Shown here: one piece after another, positions 4,720 to 19,954 of the stretch
Layout: each line of letters starts with the position of its first letter
Position numbering within the stretch: position 1 is the first letter of the stretch
The notes under the pieces: model-generated
Seen by the model: the letters and a program-made list of their open reading frames with translations, nothing else
What the model was told of the DNA's origin: nothing
Database searches by the model: none
Sequence record: NC_052658.1
DNA from: Escherichia phage nepoznato
Direction: 5' to 3' (one strand)
DNA: 64,000 nucleotides
Made by a program: the position numbers and the translations under genes

Positions 4720-5325
4720 ATGCAACATAGTGTAGTAGTCAACATGCCGAATAGTGGGGATAAATCTTTTGGTGTCCCTGCTAAAAAAGTGTGGAAAGCC
4801 CATTTTCATCTTACTTTATCTAACGTTAGTTCTGAAGAGTTGATGAAAGCAGCTAAGATTATTGGTGCCAAATGCACAACAATTGATTTACATCGGGATA
4901 CAAAGTCTCAACGTGATCGTATGTTAACAAAGTATCAAAGCGATCTCGACACTACTTTAATGTTGCAGTGTGTAGAAAAACTTGAGAATGCAGGTTTCAA
5001 TGTTGTTCGTTACAAACTGGAACGAATGTTTAAACATGTTGCCTGTGTTCTTTTCATGGATCTAAGTAAAGAAAATTATGGAGAAGTTCACATTAAGACT
5101 TCAGCAAGTGATCCCGAAGTAGAAACAAACTTCTTCCGTATTTCTTCTAATGCTGAAGAAATTGATTACCGATTTTATAATGCTCGCTTATATTCCGCAG
5201 AAGATAAGTTGCGTTTCAATGAAGCGTATGATATGCTCTTGAACAGTGGGATACAGATAAAAGGCTACCACATAGAACAAGTGGTAGTGGACAGTAATCT
5301 TAACTTAGACGCATGGTGGGCTTAA
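4720..5325 (+). CDS. Hypothetical protein; weak 2H-phosphoesterase-like HxTx motif
   Basis: GAGGAG SD; one HLTL (H-x-T-x) motif near residue 30; a second canonical motif is not clear (VHIKTS). Confidence 0.45.
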   Translation: MQHSVVVNMPNSGDKSFGVPAKKVWKAHFHLTLSNVSSEELMKAAKIIGAKCTTIDLHRDTKSQRDRMLTKYQSDLDTTLMLQCVEKLENAGFNVVRYKLERMFKHVACVLFMDLSKENYGEVHIKTSASDPEVETNFFRISSNAEEIDYRFYNARLYSAEDKLRFNEAYDMLLNSGIQIKGYHIEQVVVDSNLNLDAWWA

Positions 5326-5326
5326 T

Positions 5327-5983
5327 ATGACTATTAAACATATCTCTTTTGATGTATGGAACACACTGATCACAGCAAACTCCAATTACGCAGACATGCG
5401 AGCCTGGACTATCGCAAAATATGGAGATATTACGGAAGTGGAAGCAAGAGCAGCTTATAAGAAGATCAAAAAGGAACTGGATAATGCAGCACTTCAAGGC
5501 AAAGCCGAGTGTGCAGCATACGCCTGGGAAAGACTTGGTTCTGAACTTGGGATAACACCTTGGAAGTCTGCAAAGCTTCGTTTCGAGTGTGAACAGTGGT
5601 TCCTTAAGTTTCCACCACACGTAGCCGTGGATCTGCCGATGTACTTGCTGTATCTTTCGGGACGTTATGATTTGAGTATTAAGAGCAATACCAACTTTAT
5701 ATCAGGGGATATCCTGCGTCGTGCTTGTAAGTTTGATAGTTGGAATTGTTTTGAGTTCACCCATTTCTCGGATGAAGCTTTACTTTGTAAACCAGATCCG
5801 CGATTCTTTGCTCGCACGCTCACATATTCTCCGATCCCTCTGTTAGGGCACGAAGTATTGCACGTAGGCGATAGTGAAGAATATGATGGAAAATGTGTTG
5901 ACTTAGGATTTAACTTCTGTCATATTAAGAACCCTAACGACTTACTAGAGAAACTTAAAAGAGGAGAAATTGTAAATGCGTAA
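5327..5983 (+). CDS. HAD-superfamily hydrolase-like protein
   Basis: N-terminal ISFDVWNTLI (haloacid-dehalogenase-type DxYGT-like motif I variant) and C-terminal HVGDSEEYDG (motif IV-like). Confidence 0.5.
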   Translation: MTIKHISFDVWNTLITANSNYADMRAWTIAKYGDITEVEARAAYKKIKKELDNAALQGKAECAAYAWERLGSELGITPWKSAKLRFECEQWFLKFPPHVAVDLPMYLLYLSGRYDLSIKSNTNFISGDILRRACKFDSWNCFEFTHFSDEALLCKPDPRFFARTLTYSPIPLLGHEVLHVGDSEEYDGKCVDLGFNFCHIKNPNDLLEKLKRGEIVNA

Positions 5984-6803
5984 TCAAACTCAAATTTTTG
6001 CAAATAAATTTGATGACCTGGAAACTGCTACTTTTGATATCCAAGATTATTCAAAATTGAAATTTGGTAGTAACCAAGCCGCGCGTCGTATGGGTAAAGA
6101 ATTGGCACTTCAGTTTTTTGCTCAAGTGGCAATGAAACATATTGGGGAACAATTTGTTATCATTCCTTCTCCTTACAACCATGTGCATAATGCTGCAACA
6201 ATGATGACAGATCATTTTATTAATTACTTTAACATGTTGCAATCACAATATAATCAAGGTCGTTCAGCAGAACTGGACATTATTCATCGTAAAGTTAGCT
6301 ATATCAACGATTATGGTTTCTTGGATAAAGCTAGTCGTAAGAAACTTATTGATGGGGATACATTCTACTGCAACAAAGAATTCTGGGGTGATAAGAAGCT
6401 TGTATTCATTGATGATGTAAATATCACTGGAACGCATGAAGACAAACTGATTGAGATTCTTGATGAAAATCAAGTTAAAAATGATGTTTACTTCCTGTAT
6501 TTTGCAAAATATGAAGGTAATCAAGCAGATACCGAAGCTAAACTGAATTTTAACTACATTAATACACCAGAAGCGTTTGTTAAAATGATTAATGAAGAAC
6601 GTGATGCACAGTGTCTTGTTCGTCCTATTAAATATCTTATGGGCCAAAATCATGAAGACTTCAAAATCATTCTTAGCCAATTGCCACACTACTATGTAGA
6701 GCAACTTTTCTTCGGCTGTTTAGCTGAAGGCTACAATCGAATTGCAAAGTATACTGAAAACTTTGAATTCTTGGATCGTTACACAAAACAACACATTCTG
6801 TAA
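5976..6803 (+). CDS. Phosphoribosyltransferase (PRTase)-like protein
   Basis: KKLVFIDDVNITGT resembles the type I PRTase PRPP-binding loop; GAGGAG SD; start overlaps the end of the HAD-like gene. Confidence 0.5.
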   Translation: MRNQTQIFANKFDDLETATFDIQDYSKLKFGSNQAARRMGKELALQFFAQVAMKHIGEQFVIIPSPYNHVHNAATMMTDHFINYFNMLQSQYNQGRSAELDIIHRKVSYINDYGFLDKASRKKLIDGDTFYCNKEFWGDKKLVFIDDVNITGTHEDKLIEILDENQVKNDVYFLYFAKYEGNQADTEAKLNFNYINTPEAFVKMINEERDAQCLVRPIKYLMGQNHEDFKIILSQLPHYYVEQLFFGCLAEGYNRIAKYTENFEFLDRYTKQHIL

Positions 6804-6817
6804 TAAGGAGCTAAAAA

Positions 6818-7291
6818 ATGCTTAAAATGAAAACAGGTAATCTTATTGATGCCGCTAAAGCAGGTGAAGTAACTGTTATTGCTCATTGTTGCAATTGTAT
6901 GTGTAATATGGGGGCAGGAATTGCTCCGCAAATTAAACGAGCATTCCCTTATGCATATGCGGCGGATTTAGACACAATGGCTGGTGATCAGAGTAAGTTA
7001 GGTTCTTTTAGTTTAGGGGTGCCAGACGAACAATCAGACCCTTTGGTATATAATCTATACGGGCAATACCGTTACGGATATAATGCTAAAGGTCGTCAGT
7101 TGGACTATGATGCCCTATACGATGCACTAATAGCTATGGCTAATGATTTGCTTCTCCGTGACCAAAAATGTAAGATCGGTTTACCTATGATTGGAGCGGG
7201 ACATGCCGGAGGTAATTGGGCTATCATCCAAGTGATGATTGAAGAAACTTTAGTAAAAACAGGTCACGATGTGACTATTTATAAACTTTAA
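6818..7291 (+). CDS. Macro-domain (ADP-ribose-binding/processing) protein, divergent
   Basis: VTVIAHCCNCMCNMGAGIAPQI aligns with the macro VxNAAN..LxGGGGVDGAI region; LPMIGAGHAGGNWAII aligns with the second macro motif; 157 aa. Confidence 0.55.
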   Translation: MLKMKTGNLIDAAKAGEVTVIAHCCNCMCNMGAGIAPQIKRAFPYAYAADLDTMAGDQSKLGSFSLGVPDEQSDPLVYNLYGQYRYGYNAKGRQLDYDALYDALIAMANDLLLRDQKCKIGLPMIGAGHAGGNWAIIQVMIEETLVKTGHDVTIYKL

Positions 7292-7303
7292 GAGGAGATT
7301 AGT

Positions 7304-7525
7304 ATGGGTGTTTTTGCAGGTATTGTTGCAGTGGTAAGCTTTTTTGTTATTGCTTTTATGCTTAGTTTGATTCCAGCTTGGTTACTGTTGCTGGCTTACA
7401 ACTATGTTGCTGAAGTTATGGGTCATGCAGATATCACTGTCCCAGTAACCTTCTGGACCGTGGTTTGTGTTTCGTTTATTCTGGCTGTATTACGAGGAAT
7501 CTTTTCCTCTCATTCAACAAAATAA
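7304..7525 (+). CDS. Small membrane protein (two predicted TM helices)
   Basis: AGAGGAG SD; hydrophobic segments FAGIVAVVSFFVIAFMLSLIPAWLLLLAY and TVVCVSFILAVL. Confidence 0.5.
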   Translation: MGVFAGIVAVVSFFVIAFMLSLIPAWLLLLAYNYVAEVMGHADITVPVTFWTVVCVSFILAVLRGIFSSHSTK

Positions 7526-7528
7526 GTG

Positions 7529-7557
7529 TTGACATAGTTCTTAAAAAGAGTAAGATA
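7529..7557 (+). promoter_or_regulatory. Sigma70-like promoter upstream of terC
   Basis: TTGACA at 7529-7534, 16-17 nt spacer, TAAGAT -10-like hexamer; followed by a leader hairpin GCGGGGA/TCCCCGC (7569-7587) before the SD. Confidence 0.45.
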
Positions 7558-7604
7558 TATCACATGAAGCGGGGAATAGTTCCCCGCAAAGAGAGGAGAA
7601 AAGA

Positions 7605-8579
7605 ATGCAACTCGGTTTCCCAATTATTGATGTAGTTGTTTTAGTTGGTATTTTGGCATTGTCTATTGGTATCGATTTCTTTGGTCATAAAGAGAATAAA
7701 GAAATTGGAATTAAATCTGCTTTGCTTTGGTCTATTTTTTGGATTGCTTTAGCTTTAGGATATTACGCATTCATTTGGGTAGAACATGGTAAAGAGTTTG
7801 CCGCGCTTTTCCTAAGTGGCTATGTGTTGGAAAAGAGTCTTTCTGTAGATAACCTGATGGTGTTCATGGCAATTTTTGCAAGCTTTGGAATTAAGAGCAC
7901 ACATCTCCAACATAAGATTTTACTTTGGGGGATTGCAGGAGCCATTGTCTTCCGAGGTATTTTTGTTGCAGCAGGCACCGCTTTGTTTAACCTTCATTGG
8001 TCGGTACAAGTGTTGTTCGGTTTGATTGTAGCTTGGTCTGCCGTAGCTATCATCAAAGGTGGTGACGAAGAAGAGGATATTGATTACTCTAAGCATTGGG
8101 CTGTTCGTTTAGTAGGTAAAGTTCTGCCTGTGCACAATGCACTGGATGGTGAAAAGTTCATTACCATTAAGAATGGTATTAAATATGCAACTCCTGCTCT
8201 TCTTTGTGTGTTTGTTATTGAGCTTACAGATATTGTCTTCTCTTTTGATTCAGTTCCGGCTGTGATCGGTGTGACACAAGAACCTCTGCTGGTTTATTCT
8301 GCAATGCTGATGGCTGTTCTTGGTTTACGTGCGCTTTTCTTTGTGTTAAGTGTAGCTGTGAAATATCTGGTTCACTTAGAGAAAGCTGTTGCTGTGGTTC
8401 TGGTGTTTGTTGGTGTTAAACTTATGTATCACCCGTTCGGTGAAACACTTCATGCCAAGTGGTCATTCCTCCCGCATGATATTTCCCCTAACGTAAGTCT
8501 GATGATTGTTCTAGGCACATTAGCTCTTGGTGTTATTGCAAGCTTTATCTTCCCTGAAAAAGAAGAAGCTGCTGTTTAA
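7605..8579 (+). CDS. terC: TerC-family integral membrane protein
   Basis: Multi-pass membrane protein with the TerC signature EKSLSVDNLMVF and a second SFDSVPAV segment; 324 aa. Confidence 0.8.
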   Translation: MQLGFPIIDVVVLVGILALSIGIDFFGHKENKEIGIKSALLWSIFWIALALGYYAFIWVEHGKEFAALFLSGYVLEKSLSVDNLMVFMAIFASFGIKSTHLQHKILLWGIAGAIVFRGIFVAAGTALFNLHWSVQVLFGLIVAWSAVAIIKGGDEEEDIDYSKHWAVRLVGKVLPVHNALDGEKFITIKNGIKYATPALLCVFVIELTDIVFSFDSVPAVIGVTQEPLLVYSAMLMAVLGLRALFFVLSVAVKYLVHLEKAVAVVLVFVGVKLMYHPFGETLHAKWSFLPHDISPNVSLMIVLGTLALGVIASFIFPEKEEAAV

Positions 8580-8585
8580 TAGATG

Positions 8586-8610
8586 AGCCTCCTTCGGGAG
8601 GCTATTTTAT
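8586..8610 (+). terminator. Rho-independent terminator after terC
   Basis: Hairpin AGCCTCC-TTCG-GGAGGCT followed by ATTTTAT. Confidence 0.65.
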
Positions 8611-8621
8611 AGGAGAGACTT

Positions 8622-8972
8622 ATGAATAATTTTGATGAAATTCAAGAACTTGTTTGGGATTTATCTGGTGATGTGGATTACATTTCAGATTATCTTTCAA
8701 AAGTTTACCCTGGGGTAAGCGTTATGATTGTGACCAAAGATCCGATTAATTTGCCTCCTAATGTGGTAGCTTGTTGTGGAAGTGGTTCAGGAGAAGTAGA
8801 GCCTGTATCTCGTTGGGAATTAACTAAAGCTGTTTCAAAACGAAACGGTGAAGTTTTGAATATTGATATTGAACAAATATGGACTTCTCCAGCAGCCAAA
8901 TGGAATGATCCGAATGGTTGGGATTTGTTCTTCTGGGATAATGAAACTGATGATGAGGTATTTTTAAAATGA
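8622..8972 (+). CDS. Hypothetical protein
   Basis: ATG with SD; 116 aa; no motif. Confidence 0.45.
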   Translation: MNNFDEIQELVWDLSGDVDYISDYLSKVYPGVSVMIVTKDPINLPPNVVACCGSGSGEVEPVSRWELTKAVSKRNGEVLNIDIEQIWTSPAAKWNDPNGWDLFFWDNETDDEVFLK

Positions 8973-9214
8973 AATACTTGTTGGTTGTGTTTGAAAATAT
9001 CTGTTTTGCAATAGGGTTGTTTGTTGTAATTTTTGTATTGACAAGCGTAATCAACGGCAGTAAAGTGAGTTTATACCGAGATGGAGAGCAAATTTATTGC
9101 TTCTCTGGAGATTTCAAACACAGATGTATTAATAGTCAAAATGAGGAAAGCAAATATGAAAAAACTAGCCCTGATTTTAATTGGTTGTATCTTTTTAACA
9201 GCTTGCGAGGATGA
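8969..9214 (+). CDS. Hypothetical small membrane protein (uncertain; overlaps the lipoprotein start)
   Basis: N-terminal hydrophobic segment LLVVFENICFAIGLFVVIFVLTSV; overlaps the next gene. Confidence 0.3.
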   Translation: MKYLLVVFENICFAIGLFVVIFVLTSVINGSKVSLYRDGEQIYCFSGDFKHRCINSQNEESKYEKTSPDFNWLYLFNSLRG

Positions 9215-9593
9215 AACAAATCCTGCACAATACCAACAACCTCCTCAACAATACGCCCAACAAGGATCTGATGGAGATACAACTATTATCAACAATGGTG
9301 GCGGTTCTAGTAGTAGCGGTGTTGGTGAGTTTGCTACAGGTATGTTGTTAGGGCATATGATGAGCGGTGGTAGTAATCGTAGTGGCGGGGATTATAACGA
9401 TAACAGAACAATTATTAATAAACATTATAACACACCTAAACCGAAGACTAATTTTTATGGTAAGCCTAAACAAGAGACAAAAACTTATGAAAAGCCGAGA
9501 CAAACTTTTAAAACAAATAGTAGCTATACAACTCGTAAATCTTACAATAGCCCTTTAAGTAAAAAGAGTTCATCTCGTAGCAAGCGACGTTAA
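9156..9593 (+). CDS. Lipoprotein (signal peptide plus lipobox), Q/G/S-rich with a lysine-rich C-terminus
   Basis: MKKLALILIGCIFLTAC lipobox; GAGGA SD at 9143-9147; alternative ATG at 9141; low-complexity mature region. Confidence 0.55.
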   Translation: MKKLALILIGCIFLTACEDETNPAQYQQPPQQYAQQGSDGDTTIINNGGGSSSSGVGEFATGMLLGHMMSGGSNRSGGDYNDNRTIINKHYNTPKPKTNFYGKPKQETKTYEKPRQTFKTNSSYTTRKSYNSPLSKKSSSRSKRR

Positions 9594-9608
9594 TAAGGAG
9601 AAAAAACA

Positions 9609-10052
9609 ATGACAATTTCTATCCGTACTTCCATTACAGGTGTTAAAAGTTTGCCTAATGCTTTGCAAATTACACGCGCTTTGAGGGATACGTTCTCCGC
9701 TGTGGATGAGCATAAGATGCTTGATAATCTCTCAAATTGGCCTTATTTTCATTATTTTAAAAATGAAGACGACGAGTTTATAGATGCTGTTTCTTATGGT
9801 TATGATTTCGGTAAGGAGGTTTCTCCTGAAGAATTTGTAGCTATGGTGTTCCCAAACGGTTTGCCTACTCGCAGTAAACGTAAAAAAGGACCAAAAAACA
9901 AGAAACGTGCTACTAACAAAGCTACCATTTTCTTTACTGATGGCACACAATATACGATTAAAGATTTTGAAGAGGTATCTTATACAGCAGGTGGGAATCT
10001 TTCTTTCTACACCATCAAAAAAACAAAACCCTACGTTCAGCCATGTTTCTAA
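9609..10052 (+). CDS. Hypothetical protein
   Basis: ATG with GGAG SD; 147 aa; basic patch KRKKGPKNKKR. Confidence 0.45.
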   Translation: MTISIRTSITGVKSLPNALQITRALRDTFSAVDEHKMLDNLSNWPYFHYFKNEDDEFIDAVSYGYDFGKEVSPEEFVAMVFPNGLPTRSKRKKGPKNKKRATNKATIFFTDGTQYTIKDFEEVSYTAGGNLSFYTIKKTKPYVQPCF

Positions 10053-10206
10053 CATGATTGAAATGTTAGTAGAAGATATTGAAAGCGTGGCTGTGTTAGG
10101 TATGCATAAAAGCTTTTTAATTACAAATATTTCAGATTTCAGTGCACGTTTATCTGGCCCTGATTTTGAAGCCACGACCACGCATTTCACTTTTAAGGTG
10201 TAAGTT

Positions 10207-10797
10207 ATGCATACCGAGAGAGACTTGCAACTCTTGTGGTGGGAAGTGATGCAGGAAATAAAAGAAGATTTTCCTGTTTACTACAACATGTTACGTGAAG
10301 CAGGATATAAAGCTTGCGTTAGAAACAAAGTGAATAACTCTTTTGGTTGGTGCAATTACCGAGATAAGATTGTTGTTGTAAATTGGCACTTGCATAAGAA
10401 CTCCACAAGAGATATGATCGTGGATACAATGAAGCACGAAATTGCTCACGCTATTGATGGTTGTATGGGTAAGTTTAGTAGGCATGGTGCTCATTGGCAA
10501 AAACTGGCAGCAGAATTAGGGGCTAATCCTAAAGCCACTTCCAAAGAGCCGTTGAACCACGAATATAAATATGTTCTTGTTCTGGTAGATAGGTTTGCGA
10601 CAAGATGTGTTAGAGGTTATAATCGTAAACCTAATCGCATGTACCCAGGTAAGCAACCTAACATGTGGTTGAAATCAGATAAAGAAGGAACTGAAGGAAA
10701 ATTATGGTTGTATAAATGGGATGATTGGGTTAAAGTAGCTAAAGAGTACGGTGTTTCACCATATATAAGAGATGCAGAAGAGGAGAATGAAGAATGA
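10207..10797 (+). CDS. SprT-like zinc metalloprotease domain protein
   Basis: HEIAHAID (HExxH) in a SprT-like context, followed by ...HGAHW. Confidence 0.5.
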   Translation: MHTERDLQLLWWEVMQEIKEDFPVYYNMLREAGYKACVRNKVNNSFGWCNYRDKIVVVNWHLHKNSTRDMIVDTMKHEIAHAIDGCMGKFSRHGAHWQKLAAELGANPKATSKEPLNHEYKYVLVLVDRFATRCVRGYNRKPNRMYPGKQPNMWLKSDKEGTEGKLWLYKWDDWVKVAKEYGVSPYIRDAEEENEE

Positions 10798-11906
10798 CAA
10801 GTCCATTTTTAAAAGCAGCTACTGGTGGTCAGAAGAAGTCTGAAATGAGTGTATTCGCTGCAACAACAGATGCAAGTAAATCTGTATTCGCTCCAAGTGT
10901 GTTAGATGCCAGTCCTGTTTATGCACCAGCAGCACCGCAAGAAGTTCCAGTTTTGCCTGCTATGACCCGACAAGAGATCGAAGAGATTGGGGCAGAGGCA
11001 GGAACAACCTTGCGTTCCTTGAATGCCGAGGTATTAAAACATCAACGTAGTAATCAAGGCGATCAGATGAGTGAACGACTCACAGCTTTGATTAAACAGG
11101 CAAAACAACTTGATCCAAATTCTATTAAACAAAGCAAGGGTATTACTAAACTCATTAAAAAAGTTATGGGTATGAAAGAAGACCTGTTCGGGGAGTTTGA
11201 TAATGTTAATAACCGTATTGAAGAGTTGGTAAAGAACCTTCAAATGGATATTCGCAAAGAAGAAGATTCCTTGGTATATCTTGAAAAGCTACATCAAGCT
11301 ATTGGACAATATGCTGCAAGTTTGAACCGAGATATGCAGCTTCTAACAGCAACCTATGAAAAAGAAGAACAAGCTTTGGCTGCTCTTCCAGAAGATGCAG
11401 TAGAACAGCGACAAGTGATCCGAGATACTTTGGATCTTCTGGAGATTCGTATTGCAGATTTAAAAGCATTGCGCCTACTGTGTGTCCAAATGGGACCGCG
11501 TGTACAAGGTATGCAAAAAGTTTCTGCAAGCTTAATGCGATCTGCGCGTAACATAGTAAATAATGTTATTCCTGCTTACTCTGCTAACTTCTCAATGTAT
11601 ATCGAGAGTTTACGTCAAATGAAAGCAGCAGAGACGCAGAATAACGTTCTTGATGAATTTAACCTGGCAATTAAACTGGGTAGCGATCTTGCCACACAGA
11701 ATCAGATCGAAGCAGCAGCACTGGCTAACCGTCAAGTGTTGGATATTGAAACTCTGCGTCACGATCAGGAAAACTTGGTTAAGATGTTGGAAGAAACTAA
11801 CCGCATCAATACGGAAGCCCGTGCTGCTCGTGTTGATTATATTAATGAAGTTCAATCTCTGGAAGACGGGATGGTAGCTGCTGTGAAACGAGGGCTTGGT
11901 AAATGA
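10794..11906 (+). CDS. Coiled-coil protein, tentatively TelA-like (toxic anion resistance family)
   Basis: 370 aa, largely helical/coiled-coil; size and context (terC/terD neighbourhood) fit TelA; no diagnostic motif verified. Confidence 0.3.
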   Translation: MTSPFLKAATGGQKKSEMSVFAATTDASKSVFAPSVLDASPVYAPAAPQEVPVLPAMTRQEIEEIGAEAGTTLRSLNAEVLKHQRSNQGDQMSERLTALIKQAKQLDPNSIKQSKGITKLIKKVMGMKEDLFGEFDNVNNRIEELVKNLQMDIRKEEDSLVYLEKLHQAIGQYAASLNRDMQLLTATYEKEEQALAALPEDAVEQRQVIRDTLDLLEIRIADLKALRLLCVQMGPRVQGMQKVSASLMRSARNIVNNVIPAYSANFSMYIESLRQMKAAETQNNVLDEFNLAIKLGSDLATQNQIEAAALANRQVLDIETLRHDQENLVKMLEETNRINTEARAARVDYINEVQSLEDGMVAAVKRGLGK

Positions 11907-12271: not shown

Positions 12272-12469
12272 AACTACGATAACGATCCTAATATTATCCA
12301 GTTAACCCGACAAGAACTGATCACAATCATTGAAGATGCTTTTATTGATGGTTGGAATACACAAGATAATGATTGGGGTGGACCCGAAGCTTTTCTGGAA
12401 CATCATAAAACGTATGGAGACTTTTGTGAAACCACTGTAGCTCTTGATAATCTGAAGGAGGGTTTGTAA
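12266..12469 (+). CDS. Hypothetical small protein
   Basis: GAGGAGGAAG SD; 67 aa. Confidence 0.4.
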   Translation: MFNYDNDPNIIQLTRQELITIIEDAFIDGWNTQDNDWGGPEAFLEHHKTYGDFCETTVALDNLKEGL

Positions 12470-13029
12470 TGGGTTGTTTTAGTTTTTTGTGTAAGGAATC
12501 TGGAAAAGCTGCCCTTTCTACTTCTTTCGACGGATCACCTTGTTATCTCTTTCTTTTGAAGGACGGTGTTGTTATTGAAGAGATGTATGGCAACTATGAT
12601 AGTTATGGTTGTGTTTTCTCTGGAAAGGAGGATGAAAATGGCGTTCGTGAACGGTTCGAATGGGCTATGGATTGGGGTAAGGTTTGTGATTTAATGCATT
12701 CCTCAAATCCAAGGGACGGTATTGCTATGGTGCTGGAAGAGTACTTTACAGGTGAAATCCCTACAGAACAATCTGACGGAGATCCTAATCAAGGTTGGGG
12801 TGATGGTGAAGAAGATCCAGATTGTTTTTTCAGCACAGAAAAGAATAAGTTTAAACGTGTTGACAACCCTTATCACAAAGTGCATAATACTCTCATTGAA
12901 ACAGAAGATGACAAGATGGAAATTGAAGAAGATCCTCTTGTAACACTTCCTATAAGTGAGTTACAAAAGATCACTAAGGAAGCTTACGATTTGGGCTTCA
13001 AAATTGGTAGAGGAGGTATGCGTGTTTAG
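12469..13029 (+). CDS. Hypothetical acidic protein
   Basis: Start overlaps the upstream stop; 186 aa; very acidic C-terminal half. Confidence 0.45.
   Translation: MGCFSFLCKESGKAALSTSFDGSPCYLFLLKDGVVIEEMYGNYDSYGCVFSGKEDENGVRERFEWAMDWGKVCDLMHSSNPRDGIAMVLEEYFTGEIPTEQSDGDPNQGWGDGEEDPDCFFSTEKNKFKRVDNPYHKVHNTLIETEDDKMEIEEDPLVTLPISELQKITKEAYDLGFKIGRGGMRV
12860..12888 (+). promoter_or_regulatory. Sigma70-like promoter (inside the 12469 gene) ahead of the first Ter cassette
   Basis: TTGACA (12860-12865), 17 nt spacer, CATAAT (12883-12888). Confidence 0.45.
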
Positions 13030-13300
13030 ATTCAATATTCAAGAAGAAAAGTGTCAGGATTTACCTATTGCTTTCGAAGATCTTGGCATAGGGGCCACAT
13101 TCATGTATTATGATGCCTATGAAGACGCAGGGTTGGATACATACCGTAACTTGGTGTTCATTAAAAATTCCACAAACAGTGCGATCTGTATTAATGGATC
13201 ACTAGCACAACGAGGCTATACTCATTGCATCCCGCCAGATACAAATATGGTGGAAGTAGATTTAGAAGTTACCAACATTACACTTAAGAAGGAGAAATAA
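13022..13300 (+). CDS. Small protein, paralog A of a duplicated pair (cassette 1)
   Basis: GTG start with AGGAGG at 13011-13016; about 35-40% identical by eye to the 14322 protein (shared FxIxxxK, DLxxGxTFxY, GLD, VxLxVTxITLK). Confidence 0.5.
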   Translation: MFRFNIQEEKCQDLPIAFEDLGIGATFMYYDAYEDAGLDTYRNLVFIKNSTNSAICINGSLAQRGYTHCIPPDTNMVEVDLEVTNITLKKEK

Positions 13301-13301
13301 T

Positions 13302-14096
13302 ATGTCCGAGAAAATCAGCCTGAAAAAACGTCAAGAAAACCTTGCTTTCTCTCTGAAAAAGAATAAGAACCTGAATGAAGGTAAGATTGTTCTTCGTGTA
13401 GCATGTGCTCTAGATATTTCTGGTAGTATGCATGGTCTATATTCTAGTGGGGTAGTGAGTGATTTTGTAGGTAAACTGCTTCCTTTTGGTATGCTGTTCG
13501 ACGATAATCAACAAATTGATATGTGGGCCTTCAATACGAGTTCCCAAGAGCTTACTCCAGCAACAGCAGATGTTTACGATGACTATGTTGGTAAATGTAT
13601 GCGTAATGTTCGTATCGGAGGTGGAACAAATTACGCCCCTGTAATGGCGGATATCTACGATGAGTATTTTGGCACTGTTACTAAATATATTACCACTAAA
13701 CAAGTGGTACAAGAGGAGGCTCCAAAGAAAGGCTTCTTTAATCGTCTGCTTGGTAAAACTGAAACAGTGTCTGTAGAGCGTGAAAAAGTTGTAGCTGTAT
13801 CTGAACCAGGTGCTGACGTTACCCCTGGTGTTGTATTCTTCCAGACGGATGGTGAGAATGGTGATCCTAGTGCTGTTCGTCGTCTTATCGAAGAGAATAA
13901 GAATAAACCTATTTATTGGTTCATGGTTGGCGTTGGTAATGAGAAGTTCGGCTTCCTGAAAGAACTGGCAAATGCTTATGATAATGTTGGTTTTATTGGC
14001 ATTAAAGATTTAGACTTGACAGATTCAGAGCTTTATGACAAACTCTTATCTGAAGAGTTCGGAGAGTGGGTTGTTAAAGTAGGTGCTAAAAAATGA
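13302..14096 (+). CDS. vWA-domain protein with a TerD-type N-terminal ISLKK peptide (TerF/TerY-like)
   Basis: N-terminus MSEKISLKK...FSLKK, then vWA MIDAS motif LRVACALDISGSM (DxSxS). Confidence 0.55.
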   Translation: MSEKISLKKRQENLAFSLKKNKNLNEGKIVLRVACALDISGSMHGLYSSGVVSDFVGKLLPFGMLFDDNQQIDMWAFNTSSQELTPATADVYDDYVGKCMRNVRIGGGTNYAPVMADIYDEYFGTVTKYITTKQVVQEEAPKKGFFNRLLGKTETVSVEREKVVAVSEPGADVTPGVVFFQTDGENGDPSAVRRLIEENKNKPIYWFMVGVGNEKFGFLKELANAYDNVGFIGIKDLDLTDSELYDKLLSEEFGEWVVKVGAKK

Positions 14097-14341
14097 TCGA
14101 CGAGCTTGCCTCTCAAGTCATAGAAAATTATTGGCGCGAGAGAGAAGCTTTCATTATGCGCAGTCTCAAAGAGTATTTCATTGGGACTGTGCGAATGGAA
14201 GATATTGTAAGTAGAGTAGAGATTCATGTATGGCCCGATTATGAAGAATGGGTTGACAAAGAAAATGAAAATGCTATAATTCTTCGTATATACAAACCGG
14301 AGATAACATTAGGAGGAAGAAGTGTTAAACTTCGAAATTGA
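14093..14341 (+). CDS. Hypothetical small protein
   Basis: Start overlaps the upstream stop; 82 aa; contains the next cassette's promoter. Confidence 0.35.
   Translation: MIDELASQVIENYWREREAFIMRSLKEYFIGTVRMEDIVSRVEIHVWPDYEEWVDKENENAIILRIYKPEITLGGRSVKLRN
14253..14280 (+). promoter_or_regulatory. Near-consensus sigma70 promoter ahead of the second Ter cassette
   Basis: TTGACA (14253-14258), 16 nt spacer, TATAAT (14275-14280). Confidence 0.55.
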
Positions 14342-14591
14342 TGAGCAAAAAGTAAATAAACGATGCCTTACCATTAAAGATTTGGATGTAGGAGATACTT
14401 TCGTCTATGAAAATGCATTTGACGAAAATGGTTTAGACCTTAGTGAAATCATTGTTTATTTAAAAGTAGATGATGGGGAAAATGATTGTTCTGCTGTAGA
14501 ACTAAACCATCATGCACAATTAGTATCAATCCAAAACACATCTAAGCTTTTGGAAGTAGAATTGACTGTAACTGGTATTACACTTAAATAA
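14322..14591 (+). CDS. Small protein, paralog B of the duplicated pair (cassette 2)
   Basis: GTG start with AGGAGG at 14311-14316; paralogous to the 13022 protein. Confidence 0.5.
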   Translation: MLNFEIDEQKVNKRCLTIKDLDVGDTFVYENAFDENGLDLSEIIVYLKVDDGENDCSAVELNHHAQLVSIQNTSKLLEVELTVTGITLK

Positions 14592-14606
14592 TAGAGGAGA
14601 CAAAAG

Positions 14607-15209
14607 ATGACTGATAAAATTTCCCTGAAAAAAGGCTCTAGCGAAAAAATTTCCCTGAAGAAAGTTGCTCCGGCTCTGAAAGAACTGCGCCTGGAATTCT
14701 CTTGGAAATCTGATTCTAAACTGGATCTGGATGTAAGTGCACTGGTTTGTCGTCACAATGCCGCTGGCAATCCTGAAATGCTGTCTGCACGTCACCTGGT
14801 TTGCTATGCTAACAAGTTTGATCCTGAACGTTCTACCTTCGCTGGTGACGATGTTCGTGATGGAACTGGCAGCATGGAGCAGATTGATATTACTCTGGCT
14901 AAAATCTCTCCTGATGCACAAGAGATTGCCTTTGTTCTGACCATTGATGATGATACAGGTCTGAAACGTTTTGGTCATGCTTCTGAAGGTATGCTTAAAA
15001 TCTTTGACTCCGAGCGCAATGTGGAAATTCTGGATTTTGACTTCCTGGCTCCTGAAGTAGCTGGCAACACAATCTGCCACGTGGCTTCCTTGGTTCGTGA
15101 AGATGGGGAATGGAAGCTGAAAGCATATGGTGTAGGTAAAGCTGGTCTGGATATTTGTGATGTGGTCATGGCCTTCGGTGGTAAAAAAGAATGGTATGAA
15201 TGTCCATAA
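14607..15209 (+). CDS. terD: TerD-domain protein
   Basis: N-terminal double repeat KISLKKG...KISLKK, then TerD-family motifs DLDVSAL, GDDVRDGTGS, EWKLKAYGVGKAG; codon usage strongly biased to CTG/CGT/GGT. Confidence 0.8.
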   Translation: MTDKISLKKGSSEKISLKKVAPALKELRLEFSWKSDSKLDLDVSALVCRHNAAGNPEMLSARHLVCYANKFDPERSTFAGDDVRDGTGSMEQIDITLAKISPDAQEIAFVLTIDDDTGLKRFGHASEGMLKIFDSERNVEILDFDFLAPEVAGNTICHVASLVREDGEWKLKAYGVGKAGLDICDVVMAFGGKKEWYECP

Positions 15210-15227
15210 TAATTAACAAATGATTTT

Positions 15228-15247
15228 GAGGGGGAGAAATCCCCCTC
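15228..15247 (+). terminator. Hairpin after terD (weak terminator)
   Basis: GAGGGGG/CCCCCTC stem; no strong T-tract. Confidence 0.35.
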
Positions 15248-15276
15248 TTGCAATAAAGCCTCTATCGTGTTATACT
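15248..15276 (+). promoter_or_regulatory. Sigma70-like promoter for the SleB-like gene
   Basis: TTGCAA (15248-15253), 17 nt spacer, TATACT (15271-15276); AAAGGAGG SD before the TTG start. Confidence 0.45.
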
Positions 15277-15308: not shown

Positions 15309-15830
15309 TTGCTGATAAAAAACTTTGTAACAGTTGCGTTACTATCCTTAACTGCTTTTACATTTACACCTGTTGTGGCGAAAGCCGAAGCTGCAAACGT
15401 AAAAACCGCTAAAGTAGTTCACAAATGTACAAAGCAATATAATGATAAAATTCTATTAGCTTGTGCAATTTACGCAGAAGGTCGCGGTCTGGGTAAAAAA
15501 GGAATGAATGCCGTTGGGAATGTGGTAATCAACAGAAGAAATGATACCTACTTCCCTAACACAGTCAGAGGAGTCTTGTTCCAGAAAGGACAATTCTCAT
15601 ATGCGAAAACTTTTAACGTAACAGAGAAAGATAAGTGGCAGGAAGCAAAAGCAATAGCGGAGCGTTTACTTTATCTAGAGAAACATTTTCCTGAATTGCG
15701 GTCTGTTTTAGATGTTACTAAAGGTGCTCTATACTTCAAGAAACGGAATATAAAGACACACTGGGAACGTGATATGCGTCTTGTTTATCGAGATAAAGTG
15801 CATGGTTTCTATCTACCAAAGGGGAGTTAA
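15309..15830 (+). CDS. Secreted cell-wall hydrolase, SleB-like
   Basis: Signal-peptide-like N-terminus (LLSLTAFTFTPVVAKA), then CAIYAEGRG...GMNAVGNVVINRR...TVRGVLFQKGQFSY typical of SleB/Hydrolase_2; TTG start. Confidence 0.6.
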   Translation: MLIKNFVTVALLSLTAFTFTPVVAKAEAANVKTAKVVHKCTKQYNDKILLACAIYAEGRGLGKKGMNAVGNVVINRRNDTYFPNTVRGVLFQKGQFSYAKTFNVTEKDKWQEAKAIAERLLYLEKHFPELRSVLDVTKGALYFKKRNIKTHWERDMRLVYRDKVHGFYLPKGS

Positions 15831-16531: not shown

Positions 16532-17095
16532 ATGATTTATTATATTACTCCCTATCTGACAGGAAATATCGGCAAGGCTATCAATGAAGCCATTGCCGTT
16601 CTTCCAGATGATAGTTGGGTGTGTTTAAGAGATACCGATACAATGTTCCTCCTACCTGATCAACCATCTATGCTTGAAGAGCTTGTTATGTCAAACCCGC
16701 CTTTTGATGTAATAGGTGCAACTTGTAACAGGTTAGGCAGTGGTTATCAACTTTTCTCTAACCAAATTAACGATGATCCAGATATTCTAAACCATATAGA
16801 ATATGCTAAGATTGCAAGAGAATATCATAAAGTGAGTGTTGAAGAAGTTCCTTTCGGAACACCTCTAGCAGGTTTCTTTTTGCTTTTTAGAAAATCCTTG
16901 TGGAATGAAATTCCTTTCGAAGAAAAATCTATCCAATTCGACTTAATTTTCTCTCGCACTTTACATGAAAAAGGAAAGAGGTTAGGATTGATGCGGGGAA
17001 TGTATCTATTTCACATTTACAGATTAGGTCAAACAAATCCTCAACGGTCTATACATCATTTATTACACTGTCACGATCACAGTAAAACTATTTAG
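16532..17095 (+). CDS. Putative glycosyltransferase (GT-A-like, tentative)
   Basis: GGAGGGGAG SD; Rossmann-like N-terminus and DTD motif; 187 aa. Confidence 0.3.
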   Translation: MIYYITPYLTGNIGKAINEAIAVLPDDSWVCLRDTDTMFLLPDQPSMLEELVMSNPPFDVIGATCNRLGSGYQLFSNQINDDPDILNHIEYAKIAREYHKVSVEEVPFGTPLAGFFLLFRKSLWNEIPFEEKSIQFDLIFSRTLHEKGKRLGLMRGMYLFHIYRLGQTNPQRSIHHLLHCHDHSKTI

Positions 17096-17103
17096 GAGAG
17101 AAA

Positions 17104-17787
17104 ATGGAAAATATTAAAATCGGAGTGGGTGTTATCACTGTAGGTGTCCGTCCACTTAAAGACTACCTTGTAACAGATCCACGTGCAGATTTTCGAGTAT
17201 TCAACGATCCAGACCGTAAAGGTGTAGCTTATGCCAGGAATGAACTTATGCACCAGTTTTATGAAGAAGGTTATGATTATTGGTTTATTTTTGACGACGA
17301 TTGTTACCCAGTCATGGAAGGATGGGAAACATACTTTGTAGATCAAGCTGTTTCTGGAGGATGGGATTTCTTTGGTATGCCGGAGTACTTCAAAGATAAA
17401 GTTGTTGGAAGCAAAGGAGAAGTTATTCTCTGGGAACTTGCAATGTGTCAATTTGCAATGTATTCTCGTGCCGTTGTTGAAAAGATGGGTTATTTCCGCC
17501 CTTACACTCACGGTTATGGTTTTGAAGATGCCGAATGGGGACACCGTTTGAAAGCTGCTGGTTTGAATCATGGTATTCAGGCAACACCTTGTCCACTTCG
17601 TATCATGGCTTATATCCACCCAGACGATGTTTTTGGAAACAATCCTATGCCTTTTGCTAATCTGACAAAAGAAGAGAAAGAAGCTGCTATCGAGATTAAC
17701 TGGGAAGAATATAAAGCATCTTTAGAGGATATTAAAAATGGGAAAATCCGAATTTCCTATGAGGAGGCACTAGCACATGTCAAATAA
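17104..17787 (+). CDS. Glycosyltransferase, GT-A fold (DxD)
   Basis: YDYWFIFDDDCYP (DxD) and GFEDAEWGHR. Confidence 0.45.
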   Translation: MENIKIGVGVITVGVRPLKDYLVTDPRADFRVFNDPDRKGVAYARNELMHQFYEEGYDYWFIFDDDCYPVMEGWETYFVDQAVSGGWDFFGMPEYFKDKVVGSKGEVILWELAMCQFAMYSRAVVEKMGYFRPYTHGYGFEDAEWGHRLKAAGLNHGIQATPCPLRIMAYIHPDDVFGNNPMPFANLTKEEKEAAIEINWEEYKASLEDIKNGKIRISYEEALAHVK

Positions 17788-18724
17788 AAAATGGTCTAAA
17801 CTAAAAATTGATGCAAAACCTCACAGCGGTTGTGACTATCATCGTATTGTTATGCCATTTAACAACAATAATATTCAACCTAAGAAAGATGTTGTTGTGT
17901 TTAACCGTATCCATTCTAAAGGTGCAGAATACGTTTTATCTTTGAAACGTCAAGGTGTTAAGATTGTTGTAGATTTAGATGATTTCTACCAACTTAATCC
18001 AGAACATTATTTAGCAAGTCTATACGAGTCAAACACTCATGCTATTGTAGCTATGGTTAAGCTTGCTGATGTGGTTATTGTGACTACGGAATATTTGGCA
18101 TATAAGATCCGTCACTTAAATAGGAATGTTGTTGTGATCCGAAATGCGCTTCCTTTTGATAGCGGACAATTTACTTTGTCAAATGACCGTTCATCCGGTA
18201 CCCCTATTGTATGGGCTGGAGGTGCTAGTCACGAACCCGATTTACGACTAGTCTCTAACACTTTTGATGATGAACTTCTTACTATTGCGGGGTATGAAGC
18301 TTCGCAGAGTATCACAGGGCAAGAGTGGATTAAAATCCGTAGAAATTTACCAAATGCCAAATATAAAGCTGCTGTAAAAGATTTAGATAATTACATGAGT
18401 GTTTACGAAAGTCATGCTATTGCTATAGCTCCTTTGGTAGATAATGATTTTAATAATTGTAAAAGTAATCTCAAAATCCTTGAAGCTGGGGCAAAAGGTA
18501 TTCCGATTGTTTGTTCTAAGGTATTACCTTATTTTAACCCTGTAGATGCTCGCGCTGTTGCTTACGCAGAGAATAAAGCTGAATGGCATTACGAAATTGT
18601 TAAGCTTCTTCGCAATCCGAACTATCGGGAAGATCGCGGCTTGTTCTTAGCGGAACATGTTCGAACACATTATAATCTGGCAGATGCAAACGAATTGCGA
18701 CGCCAGGTTATTGAAAGCTTGTAG
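17777..18724 (+). CDS. Glycosyltransferase, GT-B fold (GT1-like), paralog 1
   Basis: C-terminal NNCKSNLKILEAGAKGIPIVCS resembles the GT1 E-x7-E/EAxAxG motif; N-terminus HSGCDYHRIV. Confidence 0.5.
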   Translation: MSNKKWSKLKIDAKPHSGCDYHRIVMPFNNNNIQPKKDVVVFNRIHSKGAEYVLSLKRQGVKIVVDLDDFYQLNPEHYLASLYESNTHAIVAMVKLADVVIVTTEYLAYKIRHLNRNVVVIRNALPFDSGQFTLSNDRSSGTPIVWAGGASHEPDLRLVSNTFDDELLTIAGYEASQSITGQEWIKIRRNLPNAKYKAAVKDLDNYMSVYESHAIAIAPLVDNDFNNCKSNLKILEAGAKGIPIVCSKVLPYFNPVDARAVAYAENKAEWHYEIVKLLRNPNYREDRGLFLAEHVRTHYNLADANELRRQVIESL

Positions 18725-18731
18725 GTGAAGT

Positions 18732-19676
18732 ATGGGACAAATAATTCTTGACAATCGTAACGGAATCAATTATAGTGTCTGCGATTTCCATAGGGTAGTG
18801 CTGCCTTACTCAAGGCAGTTCTCTTCACAACCTAAACACAACGTTTTCGTTTTTAACGGAGTGCCAACAAAAGGTAAAGAGGGCTTTTTAGCCCTTAAAA
18901 ACCTAGGCTTTAAAATGGTTATGGATTTGGATGACTCTTTAGTTATTCCAAAAGGACACATGTTAGAAGGTATTTTTGAATCAGGTATTCGTGAACATTT
19001 AAAATGGTTTTTAGAGCACAGTGATCTTGTTACAACTACGACACCTGTCTTGCAAGTTGAACTTTCACAATATAATGATAATGTGCACATAATCCCTAAT
19101 GGACTTCCTTACGATGAAGGTCAATTTGTGTTGACCCGTGATCGCTACTCCAAAACTCCATTAGTCTGGGCTGGAAGTGAAACACATAAACAAGATTTGG
19201 CTATCTTACCCGATTTTGGTAAAGATCTTACAATATGTGGTTTTCGTAGGGATTCTGAAGTTTTAAGTAGTCGTGAATGGTCTTTAATCAGAGAAAATGT
19301 AGCACCAACTTGTGTTTATGAAGGTGTAAGACCATATGCCAACTACATGGAATCTTACGATGGTCATCAAATCAGTCTTGCACCATTGATCGATAACGTG
19401 TTTAATAATGCAAAAAGCAATCTTAAAATTCTTGAGGCAGGTGCTAAGGGTTTACCTTTAATCTGCTCTCCTCGTGAGAATTATCATACACAAGAGTTTA
19501 AAGATTTGTTATTCTTTGCTGAAACACCTTCCGAGTGGAAAGATATTACGGAATACTTATTAAGTGCTCCCGATGTTTGCATGGAGAAAGGATTAGCATT
19601 AGCTAAGTATGTCAGGACTCATTATCACATTGATGTGTTGAATGAGCGTCGTAGACTTTTATTTGAGGAGCTATAA
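18732..19676 (+). CDS. Glycosyltransferase, GT-B fold, paralog 2
   Basis: Collinear with the previous protein (CDFHRVVLP..., NNAKSNLKILEAGAKGLPLICS); tandem duplicate. Confidence 0.5.
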   Translation: MGQIILDNRNGINYSVCDFHRVVLPYSRQFSSQPKHNVFVFNGVPTKGKEGFLALKNLGFKMVMDLDDSLVIPKGHMLEGIFESGIREHLKWFLEHSDLVTTTTPVLQVELSQYNDNVHIIPNGLPYDEGQFVLTRDRYSKTPLVWAGSETHKQDLAILPDFGKDLTICGFRRDSEVLSSREWSLIRENVAPTCVYEGVRPYANYMESYDGHQISLAPLIDNVFNNAKSNLKILEAGAKGLPLICSPRENYHTQEFKDLLFFAETPSEWKDITEYLLSAPDVCMEKGLALAKYVRTHYHIDVLNERRRLLFEEL

Positions 19677-19954
19677 TGATTAACACTTTTGATTTTGAAT
19701 ACACCACTCGTAACGGGAAAGCCTTGGTCGTGGAGGTGGATTACTATTATGAAGAACCTAATCCACTTTCTCGTGAAAGCGATTGGGATTACCACGGAGG
19801 GCTTTTAATTGACGGTATTCGTTTTTATGAAGGATCTACAGAAGTTTTTGAAAAAGATTTAAATGTAACTGTAGCAGAAATTGCTTTCCAATTTAGAAAG
19901 CACATGGAAGAACTAGAAGCAGAATATATGATGGAGACTAACGAACCATTTTAA
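19676..19954 (+). CDS. Hypothetical protein
   Basis: ATG overlapping the upstream stop; 92 aa. Confidence 0.4.
   Translation: MINTFDFEYTTRNGKALVVEVDYYYEEPNPLSRESDWDYHGGLLIDGIRFYEGSTEVFEKDLNVTVAEIAFQFRKHMEELEAEYMMETNEPF

Follow-up and report, generated by a model that had tools for sequence, protein, structure and literature searches.

Ter clusters occur widely, in bacteria as well as on plasmids and in phages, and have been connected with resistance to tellurite, colicins and phages. Phage Ter operons, in which TerC, TerD, TerF-vWA and TelA are accompanied by PRTase and HAD genes, were described by Iyer et al. 2021 in jumbo and related tailed phages (PMC7824862), and a phage Ter operon was likewise noted in phiKp34 (PMC8386662) and in PhiPsa374 (PMC9796965). 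The role proposed for them is the handling of membrane stress or the exclusion of competing phages.

The locus studied here lies in a window of 64,000 nucleotides, the whole stretch of DNA that was analysed, which belongs to a Phapecoctavirus, a phAPEC8-like E. coli myophage with about 60 genomes at 98-99% identity. The cluster runs in the order HAD, PRTase_3, Macro, TerC, SprT-like, TelA and S1-vWA-orf82-S2-TerD, where S1 and S2 are two copies of a small gene, S. HAD, PRTase_3, TerC, TelA, a standalone vWA protein of the TerF-C type and TerD are the same as in the published operons. The locus also has two copies of the small gene and internal sigma70-like promoter candidates. A small SH3-like family in front of vWA and/or TerD is unmentioned in the descriptions in PMC7824862, PMC8386662 and PMC9796965. 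We suggest that the region forms the distal end of a Ter stress-response cluster encoded by the phage, with an old vWA-TerD pair, that only S was duplicated, and that S is a lineage-specific accessory subunit co-translated with its partner. Taken together as one explanation, this is in our judgement moderately probable. The features of the region are listed below.

12469..13029, plus strand: orf186 (186 aa, phrog_14928); P1 is in its 3' part, and its end shares 8 nt with the start of S1.
12860..12888, plus strand: P1, sigma70-like promoter candidate TTGACA-N17-CATAAT, 11/12 matches, inside orf186, 134 nt upstream of the S1 start.
13022..13300, plus strand: S1 (92 aa), the paralog upstream of the vWA gene; GTG start, AGGAGG at 13011-13016.
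13302..14096, plus strand: vWA-TerF-like protein (264 aa), PF10138 at E=1.6e-37.
14093..14341, plus strand: orf82 (82 aa, phrog_22387), between vWA and S2; contains P2.
14253..14280, plus strand: P2, sigma70-like promoter candidate TTGACA-N16-TGnTATAAT, 12/12 matches with the extended -10 TG, inside orf82, 42 nt upstream of the S2 start.
14322..14591, plus strand: S2 (89 aa), the paralog upstream of TerD; GTG start, AGGAGG at 14311-14316.
14607..15209, plus strand: TerD-domain protein (200 aa), PF02342 at E=3.2e-28.
15228..15247, plus strand: GC-rich hairpin of 8 bp with a GAAA loop, 18 nt past the TerD stop.

All six coordinates given in the first-pass annotation for the promoters, the small proteins, vWA and TerD are correct. 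From 12469 to 14591 adjoining genes overlap or abut and there is no intergenic DNA; orf82 overlaps both the vWA stop (ATGA) and the S2 start (20 nt). Upstream of S1, orf186 (dN/dS 0.12) is kept in phi92 (as gp175), PsgM04F and loci L008 and L010. An 80-aa orthologue of orf82 (dN/dS 0.34) is found in L010 and PsgM04F, and orf82 is absent from phi92. Pfam, PADLOC and PHROG assigned no function to S1, S2, orf82 or orf186. At E<=0.01 the PADLOC models, for example TerY-P, gave no match for these four proteins or for TelA, TerC, vWA and TerD.

The protein downstream of S1 matches PF10138 at 130.1 bits (cutoff 29.4); an insertion divides the match in two, and the Pfam domain starts at residue 31. 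Its MIDAS is intact (D38xS40xS42, T109, D183), and in 17 homologues every one of these residues is invariant except S40, which is nearly so. In the AF2 model (pLDDT 90.7) a helix at residues 7-20 carries ISLKK...SLKK, and the Foldseek matches are RGLG1/2, the BON1 copine and integrin I-domains (E~1e-5), as for a vWA (Rossmann-like) fold. The protein has no TerD Pfam match, and the 30 residues before its vWA domain form one predicted helix; it is not TerF proper, the fusion of TerD and vWA. With the bacterial TerF of the terZABCDEF system (PF02342+PF10138) it shares the TerF-type vWA domain and a helix-forming phiSLxK...SLxK segment before it. However, the phage encodes the two domains in different genes, with orf82 and S2 between them, and their order, vWA and then TerD, is the reverse of that in TerF. 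Unlike TerF, the phage vWA protein also has a long beta-hairpin insertion of 45 residues (125-169).

The TerD protein scores 98.9 bits against PF02342 (cutoff 25.3), its residues 5-179 covering positions 3-177 of the 187 in the profile, and it has the N-terminus canonical for TerD, ISLKKGSSEKISLKK. It aligns over the full length, from residue 5, to the solved TerD structures of K. pneumoniae (2KXT, E=1.5e-15) and Streptomyces (3IBZ, E=2.9e-14), with ISLKKG..ISLKK corresponding to VSLSKGG-NVSLSK. It is 91% identical in amino acids to its counterpart in PsgM04F (dN/dS 0.07). In the alignment of the Ca2+ motif (GDN-TGEGDGDDE type) the phage GDD-VRDGTGSMEQ stands opposite GDNRTGEGDGDDES, and several acidic residues are replaced. 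Metal binding of the phage protein may differ from that of 2KXT, since the phage has GTGSMEQ in place of its acidic Ca-binding stretch GDGDDE. vWA and TerD genes are neighbours with no S in phage L002 and also in L016, a mobile element of Neobacillus, and the two domains are fused in TerF proteins (P0068, P0071). Judging from these arrangements, vWA and TerD appear to be a functional pair of long standing that corresponds to a TerF split in two.

S1 and S2 are real genes and are under purifying selection (dN/dS of S1 0.19-0.24). In both, AGGAGG ends five bases before the GTG. Pairwise alignment confirmed that they are paralogous, as had been claimed: BLASTP aligns them end-to-end without gaps at 33% identity (E=2e-15), and both match phrog_11278 at E<=1e-45. 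The window contains these two copies of the family only. A word-indexed search for homologues returned close relatives only, and an exhaustive profile search added about 10 further diverged small proteins; the homologues form about 13 clusters at 50% identity. M1, F4, G24, F27 and G37 are invariant in 14 diverged members. Among isolate genomes the family is found in 124 genomes at 192 places; in the records listed, Phapecoctavirus-type phages have two copies, and phi92 and other Justusliebigvirus-type phages have one. The family appears to be confined to Stephanstirmvirinae-like phages and uncultured relatives. The NJ tree of S proteins is poorly resolved and gives neither a date for the duplication nor the S1 or S2 type of the L008 and L004 copies. 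A confident AF2 model, made for S1, predicts an SH3-like beta-barrel. Giant repeat proteins with He_PIG, DUF11 or HYR Ig-like repeats were rejected as homologues of S, because their matches are a motif-level summation, with a motif of about 16-50 residues matched many times; the AF2 model of S has no Ig sandwich.

In relatives S stays with the same two genes: of the loci that carry the family 12 were examined, and all 12 have S next to, or between, vWA and TerD, counting L012, where the sequence starts just upstream of S and TerD is the only visible neighbour. Four arrangements occur, S-vWA-TerD, vWA-S-TerD, vWA-S-S-TerD and S-vWA-x-S-TerD. S2 orthologues are immediately upstream of TerD in L004, L006, L007, L010, L012, L013 and PsgM04F. 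The S1-vWA junction is TAAtATG here, and across loci S meets vWA by TAAtATG or by a TAATG overlap. The S2-TerD gap is 15 nt with GAGGAG here, and across loci gaps before TerD are 11-35 nt with a Shine-Dalgarno sequence. In L004 two tandem S genes lie between vWA and TerD, and one of them is thus not coupled to vWA or TerD. Synteny supports the attachment of S to the pair; the tandem genes of L004 do not fit the duplication of a small gene together with an effector.

We propose the following course of events. The small gene S (phrog_11278) would have been duplicated, with one copy now before vWA and the other before TerD. Host sigma70 RNA polymerase would start at the internal P1, before S1-vWA, and at P2, before S2-TerD. 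Each S would be translated from its GTG with the strong Shine-Dalgarno sequence and be translationally coupled to its neighbour, so that S and its partner are made together. S might then serve a metal-binding vWA/TerD complex as an accessory or adaptor subunit particular to this lineage; the complex is thought, following Aravind and co-workers, to act at the membrane in stress handling or in the exclusion of competing phages. A dedicated-partner role of S for vWA/TerD is plausible because S is within or beside the pair in all 12 loci examined. We infer both the physical interaction between S and its partner and its biological role.

Alternatively, S1 and S2 might be independent host-takeover or anti-defence proteins, SH3-like binders of a target in the host or a rival phage that share the Ter transcription units without working with vWA/TerD, which we consider unlikely. 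Such proteins would not be expected to stay at the vWA/TerD pair in 12/12 examined contexts, at identities down to ~23-30% and despite rearrangements, nor to conserve the tight translational coupling to vWA (TAAtATG/TAATG). Their independence would agree with the pace of evolution, since amino-acid identity to PsgM04F is 43-57% for S and 73-91% for the neighbouring genes, and this fast evolution also fits an arms-race protein acting on a host or rival target. It would agree as well with phages L002 and L003, where vWA-TerD is kept without S or has the slots of S filled by an unrelated small family, so that S is dispensable for the core pair. A fold search with S in BFVD matched nothing but its paralog and further phage proteins that are likewise uncharacterised; that many such small proteins have the same fold, and that S has no Pfam, PADLOC or NCBI-type annotation, would suit independent proteins too.

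Within the accessory-subunit explanation a more specific version can be formulated, in which S1 docks on vWA and S2 on TerD as paralog-specific adaptors that control how a phage-specific, metal-binding TerD/vWA complex is assembled or targeted to the membrane. We regard it as quite unlikely in this precise form. The docking would possibly proceed through the C-terminal strand of S (V-x-L-x-V-T-x-I-T-L-K), which is conserved but poorly packed, pairing with the exposed (I/V)SLKK segment of the partner. If the adaptor reading is true, S is a previously unrecognised Ter component and gives a handle on the function of the Ter module during infection. The phage is lytic and easily grown in E. coli, and its diverged paralogs, one coupled to vWA and the other to TerD, would offer simple access to vWA/TerD assembly by genetics and biochemistry. 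On present evidence the advance over what is known of this type of phage gene cluster is incremental, and the architecture is already present in more than 60 sequenced genomes, where the products are labelled "hypothetical proteins".

The predicted fold of S may resemble small SH3-like barrels such as FeoA, the C-terminal domain of DtxR/IdeR, the L2 C-domain, KOW, Tudor and HspQ, and S might be a nucleic-acid-binding regulator (a KOW/Tudor/L2-like barrel) of the translation or transcription of the downstream Ter genes. We hold this to be very unlikely. No sequence relationship of S to any of these domains was found, and S has conserved extensions outside the SH3-like domain, N-terminal M-x-x-F-x-I and C-terminal V-x-L-x-V-(T/S)-x-I-x-L-K, where AF2 confidence is lower.

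The first-pass annotation had explained the locus by tandem duplication of a promoter, a small protein and an effector, followed by exchange of the effector, vWA versus TerD, behind an ISLKK leader; this is highly improbable. It was right that the two downstream proteins both begin with M(S/T)(E/D)KISLKK but carry different domains (PF10138 and PF02342). Comparison of the N-termini limits their likeness to about 8-20 residues (E=0.013). However, the motif cannot be read as a leader behind which effectors were swapped, since it is family-wide in both families, bacteria included, and occurs with or without an upstream small gene. All standalone vWA-TerF-like proteins, one bacterial protein included, begin with (I/V)SLxK...SLxK, and inside full-length TerF the same segment directly precedes the vWA domain. 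In TerD the motif makes up the canonical first strand and opens the domain in the alignment to solved TerD, whereas in the vWA protein it is predicted to be helical. DNA identity is locally raised across the small-gene end, the Shine-Dalgarno sequence and the downstream start, as a copied cassette would leave it, but the two genes encode the common residues by different codons (Ser by AGC and TCC, Ile by ATC and ATT), hence there is no trace of recent DNA duplication across this boundary. The swapping of effectors also conflicts with the age of the partnership: vWA and TerD are ancient partners, which TerF has as a fusion and many phages as neighbouring genes, whether S is there or not, and their adjacency and fusion are older than S.

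The picture of two equivalent three-part units is borne out for the paralogous small genes and for strong promoter-like sites before both; it breaks down at the extra orf82 in unit 2, a gene that the first-pass annotation leaves unmentioned, and at the position of both sites inside upstream coding sequences. Among corresponding parts of the units only the small genes are homologous, and the downstream proteins share just the family-wide motif. The promoter-bearing upstream halves are unrelated: homology between the C-terminus of orf186 and orf82 was considered and rejected (BLASTP E=0.055, no DNA alignment upstream of the Shine-Dalgarno sequence). The orders S-vWA-TerD, vWA-S-TerD and vWA-S-S-TerD in relatives likewise speak against a cassette. 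The duplication is of the small gene alone, with no whole cassette.

P1 and P2 are the two best sigma70 matches in 10-17 kb, and both have the 16-18 nt spacing between -35 and -10 of a sigma70-type promoter. In the 64-kb window 8 sites match at 11/12 or better, 7 of them on the coding strand, and shuffled sequences give 3.0+-1.7. P1 has the same two hexamers in PsgM04F, L010 and phi92, with synonymous variation in the spacer, and is degraded in the more distant L008. The hexamers and TG of P2 are kept in PsgM04F and L010, where the spacer and the encoded residues differ. Promoter-like sites at the equivalent position before (S-)TerD are found in phi92, where the site is intergenic, and in L002-L009. 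Both -35 hexamers are within conserved protein motifs, so part of the hexamer conservation may be coding constraint. Literature searches on phi92, Phapecoctavirus and Stephanstirmvirinae yielded no usable transcript or promoter data; from sequence, P1 and P2 would be active promoters. That chance in AT-rich phage DNA produced the small ORFs and the promoter matches, as the many spurious frames in the ORF list and the frequency of 9-10/12 matches (29 found vs 18 expected) might suggest, is barely credible, and for S1 and S2 it is effectively refuted by their paralogy, purifying selection, homologue clusters, confident fold and strong Shine-Dalgarno sites, while the promoter hexamers are kept in diverged genomes.

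Downstream of TerD, the terminator scan did not flag the hairpin at 15228..15247, and its U-tract is weak. Its folding energy is -17.2 kcal/mol (z=-3.3), a stability equalled in 0/200 shuffles, and it probably marks the 3' end of the transcription unit or stabilises it.

The 2.9 kb around the two small genes S1 (13022-13300) and S2 (14322-14591) and the adjoining vWA and TerD genes match about 60 sequenced genomes of Phapecoctavirus (phAPEC8, EF1-1, ZCKP1 and others) at 98-99% identity; against phi92-like Justusliebigvirus and phage PsgM04F the identity is 72-73%. Because of the nucleotide identity to Phapecoctavirus, the locus is assigned at the sequence level to a lytic E. coli myophage of ~150 kb, subfamily Stephanstirmvirinae. 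Domain search finds the following genes upstream of S1.

5327-5983, HAD hydrolase
5976-6803, PRTase_3 phosphoribosyltransferase
6818-7291, Macro-domain protein
7605-8579, TerC
10207-10797, SprT-like protein
10794-11906, TelA

Ter stress-response systems have this gene set, and the Ter-associated 'signal biosynthesis' set is complete within 4720-11906. Phage Ter operons are known from earlier work, which proposes that they serve in competing with superinfecting phages (PMC7824862), and phage Ter genes are also noted for phiKp34 and PhiPsa374. The cluster is a member of this known class; its components give no matches to the PADLOC defence models. The S family and its exclusive link to vWA/TerD in the contexts examined appear to be undescribed.

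ORF, domain and promoter scans reproduce all coordinates of the first-pass annotation. By domain search, 13302-14096 is vWA-TerF-like (PF10138, E=1.6e-37) and 14607-15209 is TerD (PF02342, E=3.2e-28). The latter product is a bona fide TerD; the former is a TerF-C-type vWA and not a TerF, since it has no TerD domain. Its MIDAS residues are D38xSxS, T109 and D183 (alignment). In the phage vWA, the Pfam match is interrupted by a long beta-hairpin insertion (residues 125-169, 13674-13808), which AF2 models as strands 125-141 and 153-169; bacterial homologues lack it or have a much shorter one. S1 and S2 are indeed paralogs, with a full-length gapless alignment (33% identity, E=2e-15) and a common PHROG, phrog_11278. 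Both have GTG starts, each five bases after AGGAGG, and they are the only two S copies in the window.

Two promoters had been proposed, one before each small gene. The sites P2 (14253-14280, TTGACA-N16-TATAAT with TG, 12/12) and P1 (12860-12888, TTGACA-N17-CATAAT, 11/12) do rank first and second among sigma70 matches in 10-17 kb, but both lie inside upstream coding sequence. P1 is contained in a 186-aa gene (12469-13029, phrog_14928) that overlaps the S1 start; its product has a Cys-rich N-terminus (MGCFSFLCKES...) and no Pfam match, and its orthologue is directly upstream of S1 in phi92 (gp175), L008 and L010. P2 is contained in orf82 (14093-14341, phrog_22387, 82 aa), which overlaps both vWA and S2, is kept together with S2 in Phapecoctavirus, PsgM04F and L010, and is missing from phi92. 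The S1-vWA-orf82-S2 stretch has no intergenic space. At 11/12 or better the whole window has 8 sites, of which the coding strand carries 7 (shuffles 3.0 ± 1.7). PsgM04F, L010 and phi92 all keep the P1 hexamers unchanged, with variable third-codon positions in the spacer; L008, a more distant relative, no longer has P1. Likewise, PsgM04F and L010 preserve the P2 hexamers and TG exactly, even where spacer and encoded residues differ. In phi92, which lacks orf82 and S2, the 72 intergenic nt ahead of TerD contain TTGACT-N16-TAAAAT; in relatives further removed, a TTGAC(A/T)-N17/18 site lies within the 3' end of the vWA gene, before S/TerD. Since promoter-like sites recur there, it looks as if a separate putative start ahead of the (S-)TerD unit is conserved. 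The literature on this phage group yielded no transcript data. Past the TerD stop, a GC-rich hairpin (15228-15247, dG -17.2, z -3.3 by folding against shuffles) borders directly on a promoter-like TTGCAA-N17-TATACT with TG before the -10 hexamer, the two together spanning 15228-15276, and the endolysin gene starts at 15309. A run of glycosyltransferase genes lies beyond the endolysin region at 16532-19700 (EF1-1 annotation; window ORFs).

When 1.8 billion representatives are searched exhaustively with a profile, only ~12 diverged small proteins of 87-93 aa emerge as S family. Ig-repeat giant proteins were rejected as homologues, their matches being motif-level only. In isolate genomes the family occupies 192 places in 124 records, with two places in the Phapecoctavirus-type records listed and one in phi92 and the other Justusliebigvirus-type records listed. 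Gene orders among the related loci (L numbers) are as follows.

S-vWA-x-S-TerD: window, L010, PsgM04F
S-vWA-TerD: phi92, L008, L009
vWA-S-TerD: L006, L007, L013, L011
S-TerD: L012 (contig starts at S)
vWA-S-S-TerD: L004
vWA/TerD without S: L002, L003

A Neobacillus mobile element likewise has vWA next to TerD and no S. Since S is duplicated, lost or moved among loci and the pair is present without it, comparison of these loci identifies vWA-TerD as the conserved core. By the same comparison, S is an accessory gene that is mobile and lineage-specific: duplicated, lost and repositioned, always beside vWA-TerD in the contexts examined. To this extent synteny makes the earlier proposal of a dedicated partner plausible. 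In the distant phages L002 and L003 the S slots are taken by an unrelated acidic small family (110/116 aa; mutual BLASTP E=5e-10), before vWA (L002:4653-4985) and between vWA and TerD (L003:5744-6094), which looks like a non-homologous replacement of the accessory gene.

Evolution is far quicker in the two S genes than in vWA and TerD: amino acid identity to PsgM04F is 57% for S1, 43% for S2, 73% for vWA and 91% for TerD. For S1, a dN/dS of 0.19-0.24 shows purifying selection. In a BFVD fold search, S matches nothing but its paralog and phage proteins that are likewise uncharacterised. The monomer model is least confident in two conserved segments, one N-terminal (M-x-x-F-x-I) and one C-terminal (V-x-L-x-V-T/S-x-I-x-L-K), which would fit a role for them as interaction strands. 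With modest preference, we suggest the following mechanism. Host RNA polymerase would initiate at P1 and P2, and S1-vWA (junction TAAtATG) and (orf82-)S2-TerD (S2-TerD junction of 15 nt with GAGGAG) would be translated as coupled pairs. Inside a membrane-associated Ter module, the vWA protein with its MIDAS, and likewise TerD, would then have S as an accessory or adaptor subunit. The main rival, in which the S proteins would be fast-evolving effectors in their own right that merely share the transcription unit, takes up their divergence; set beside their constant place next to vWA/TerD in the contexts examined, it seems to us rather unlikely.

The first-pass annotation had read 12860-15209 as a tandem three-part cassette whose effector was swapped behind a shared (S/T)(E/D)KISLKK leader. 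The tandem cassette fails, as what precedes the small genes is not related between the units and orf82 is an extra gene between vWA and S2. The vWA and TerD proteins are similar as claimed, but only over the first 8-20 residues, and the motif is family-wide in both. In an alignment of 17 standalone vWA-TerF-like proteins (identity down to 28%, one from Neobacillus), L7 and K9 are invariant and L18 and K20 nearly so. Residues 7-20 of the window's vWA protein are predicted helical (AlphaFold, pLDDT 90.7), and the Pfam vWA domain begins at residue 31; a phiSLxK...SLxK segment directly N-terminal to this domain is also present in full-length bacterial-type TerF proteins. TerD ISLKKGSSEKISLKK aligns to VSLSKGG-NVSLSK, the very start of the solved K. 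pneumoniae TerD. Because the motif is family-wide, occurs in phage vWA and TerD proteins both with and without a small gene upstream, and has different codons for the shared residues in the two genes (Ser AGC vs TCC, Ile ATC vs ATT), the similarity is, judging from the alignments, an old property of both families rather than a trace left when a cassette was recently duplicated. Tandem duplication with later effector exchange, proposed from the paralogous small genes and these N-termini, is thus very improbable.

The Neobacillus vireti element (L016, 4404-8928; Phage_rep_O, recombinase) carries TerD-vWA-TerC, then a PRPP-synthetase-like protein and NAMPT; the gene order of this compact Ter module is as in TerF (TerD then vWA). 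In EF1-1 (L001, PQ571289) the S1 orthologue (9708-9905) is annotated from an internal ATG as 65 aa, and the S2 orthologue (10927-11196) is named 'RNA ligase', a label without support. TerD is named yceD or 'general stress protein 16U' in other records.
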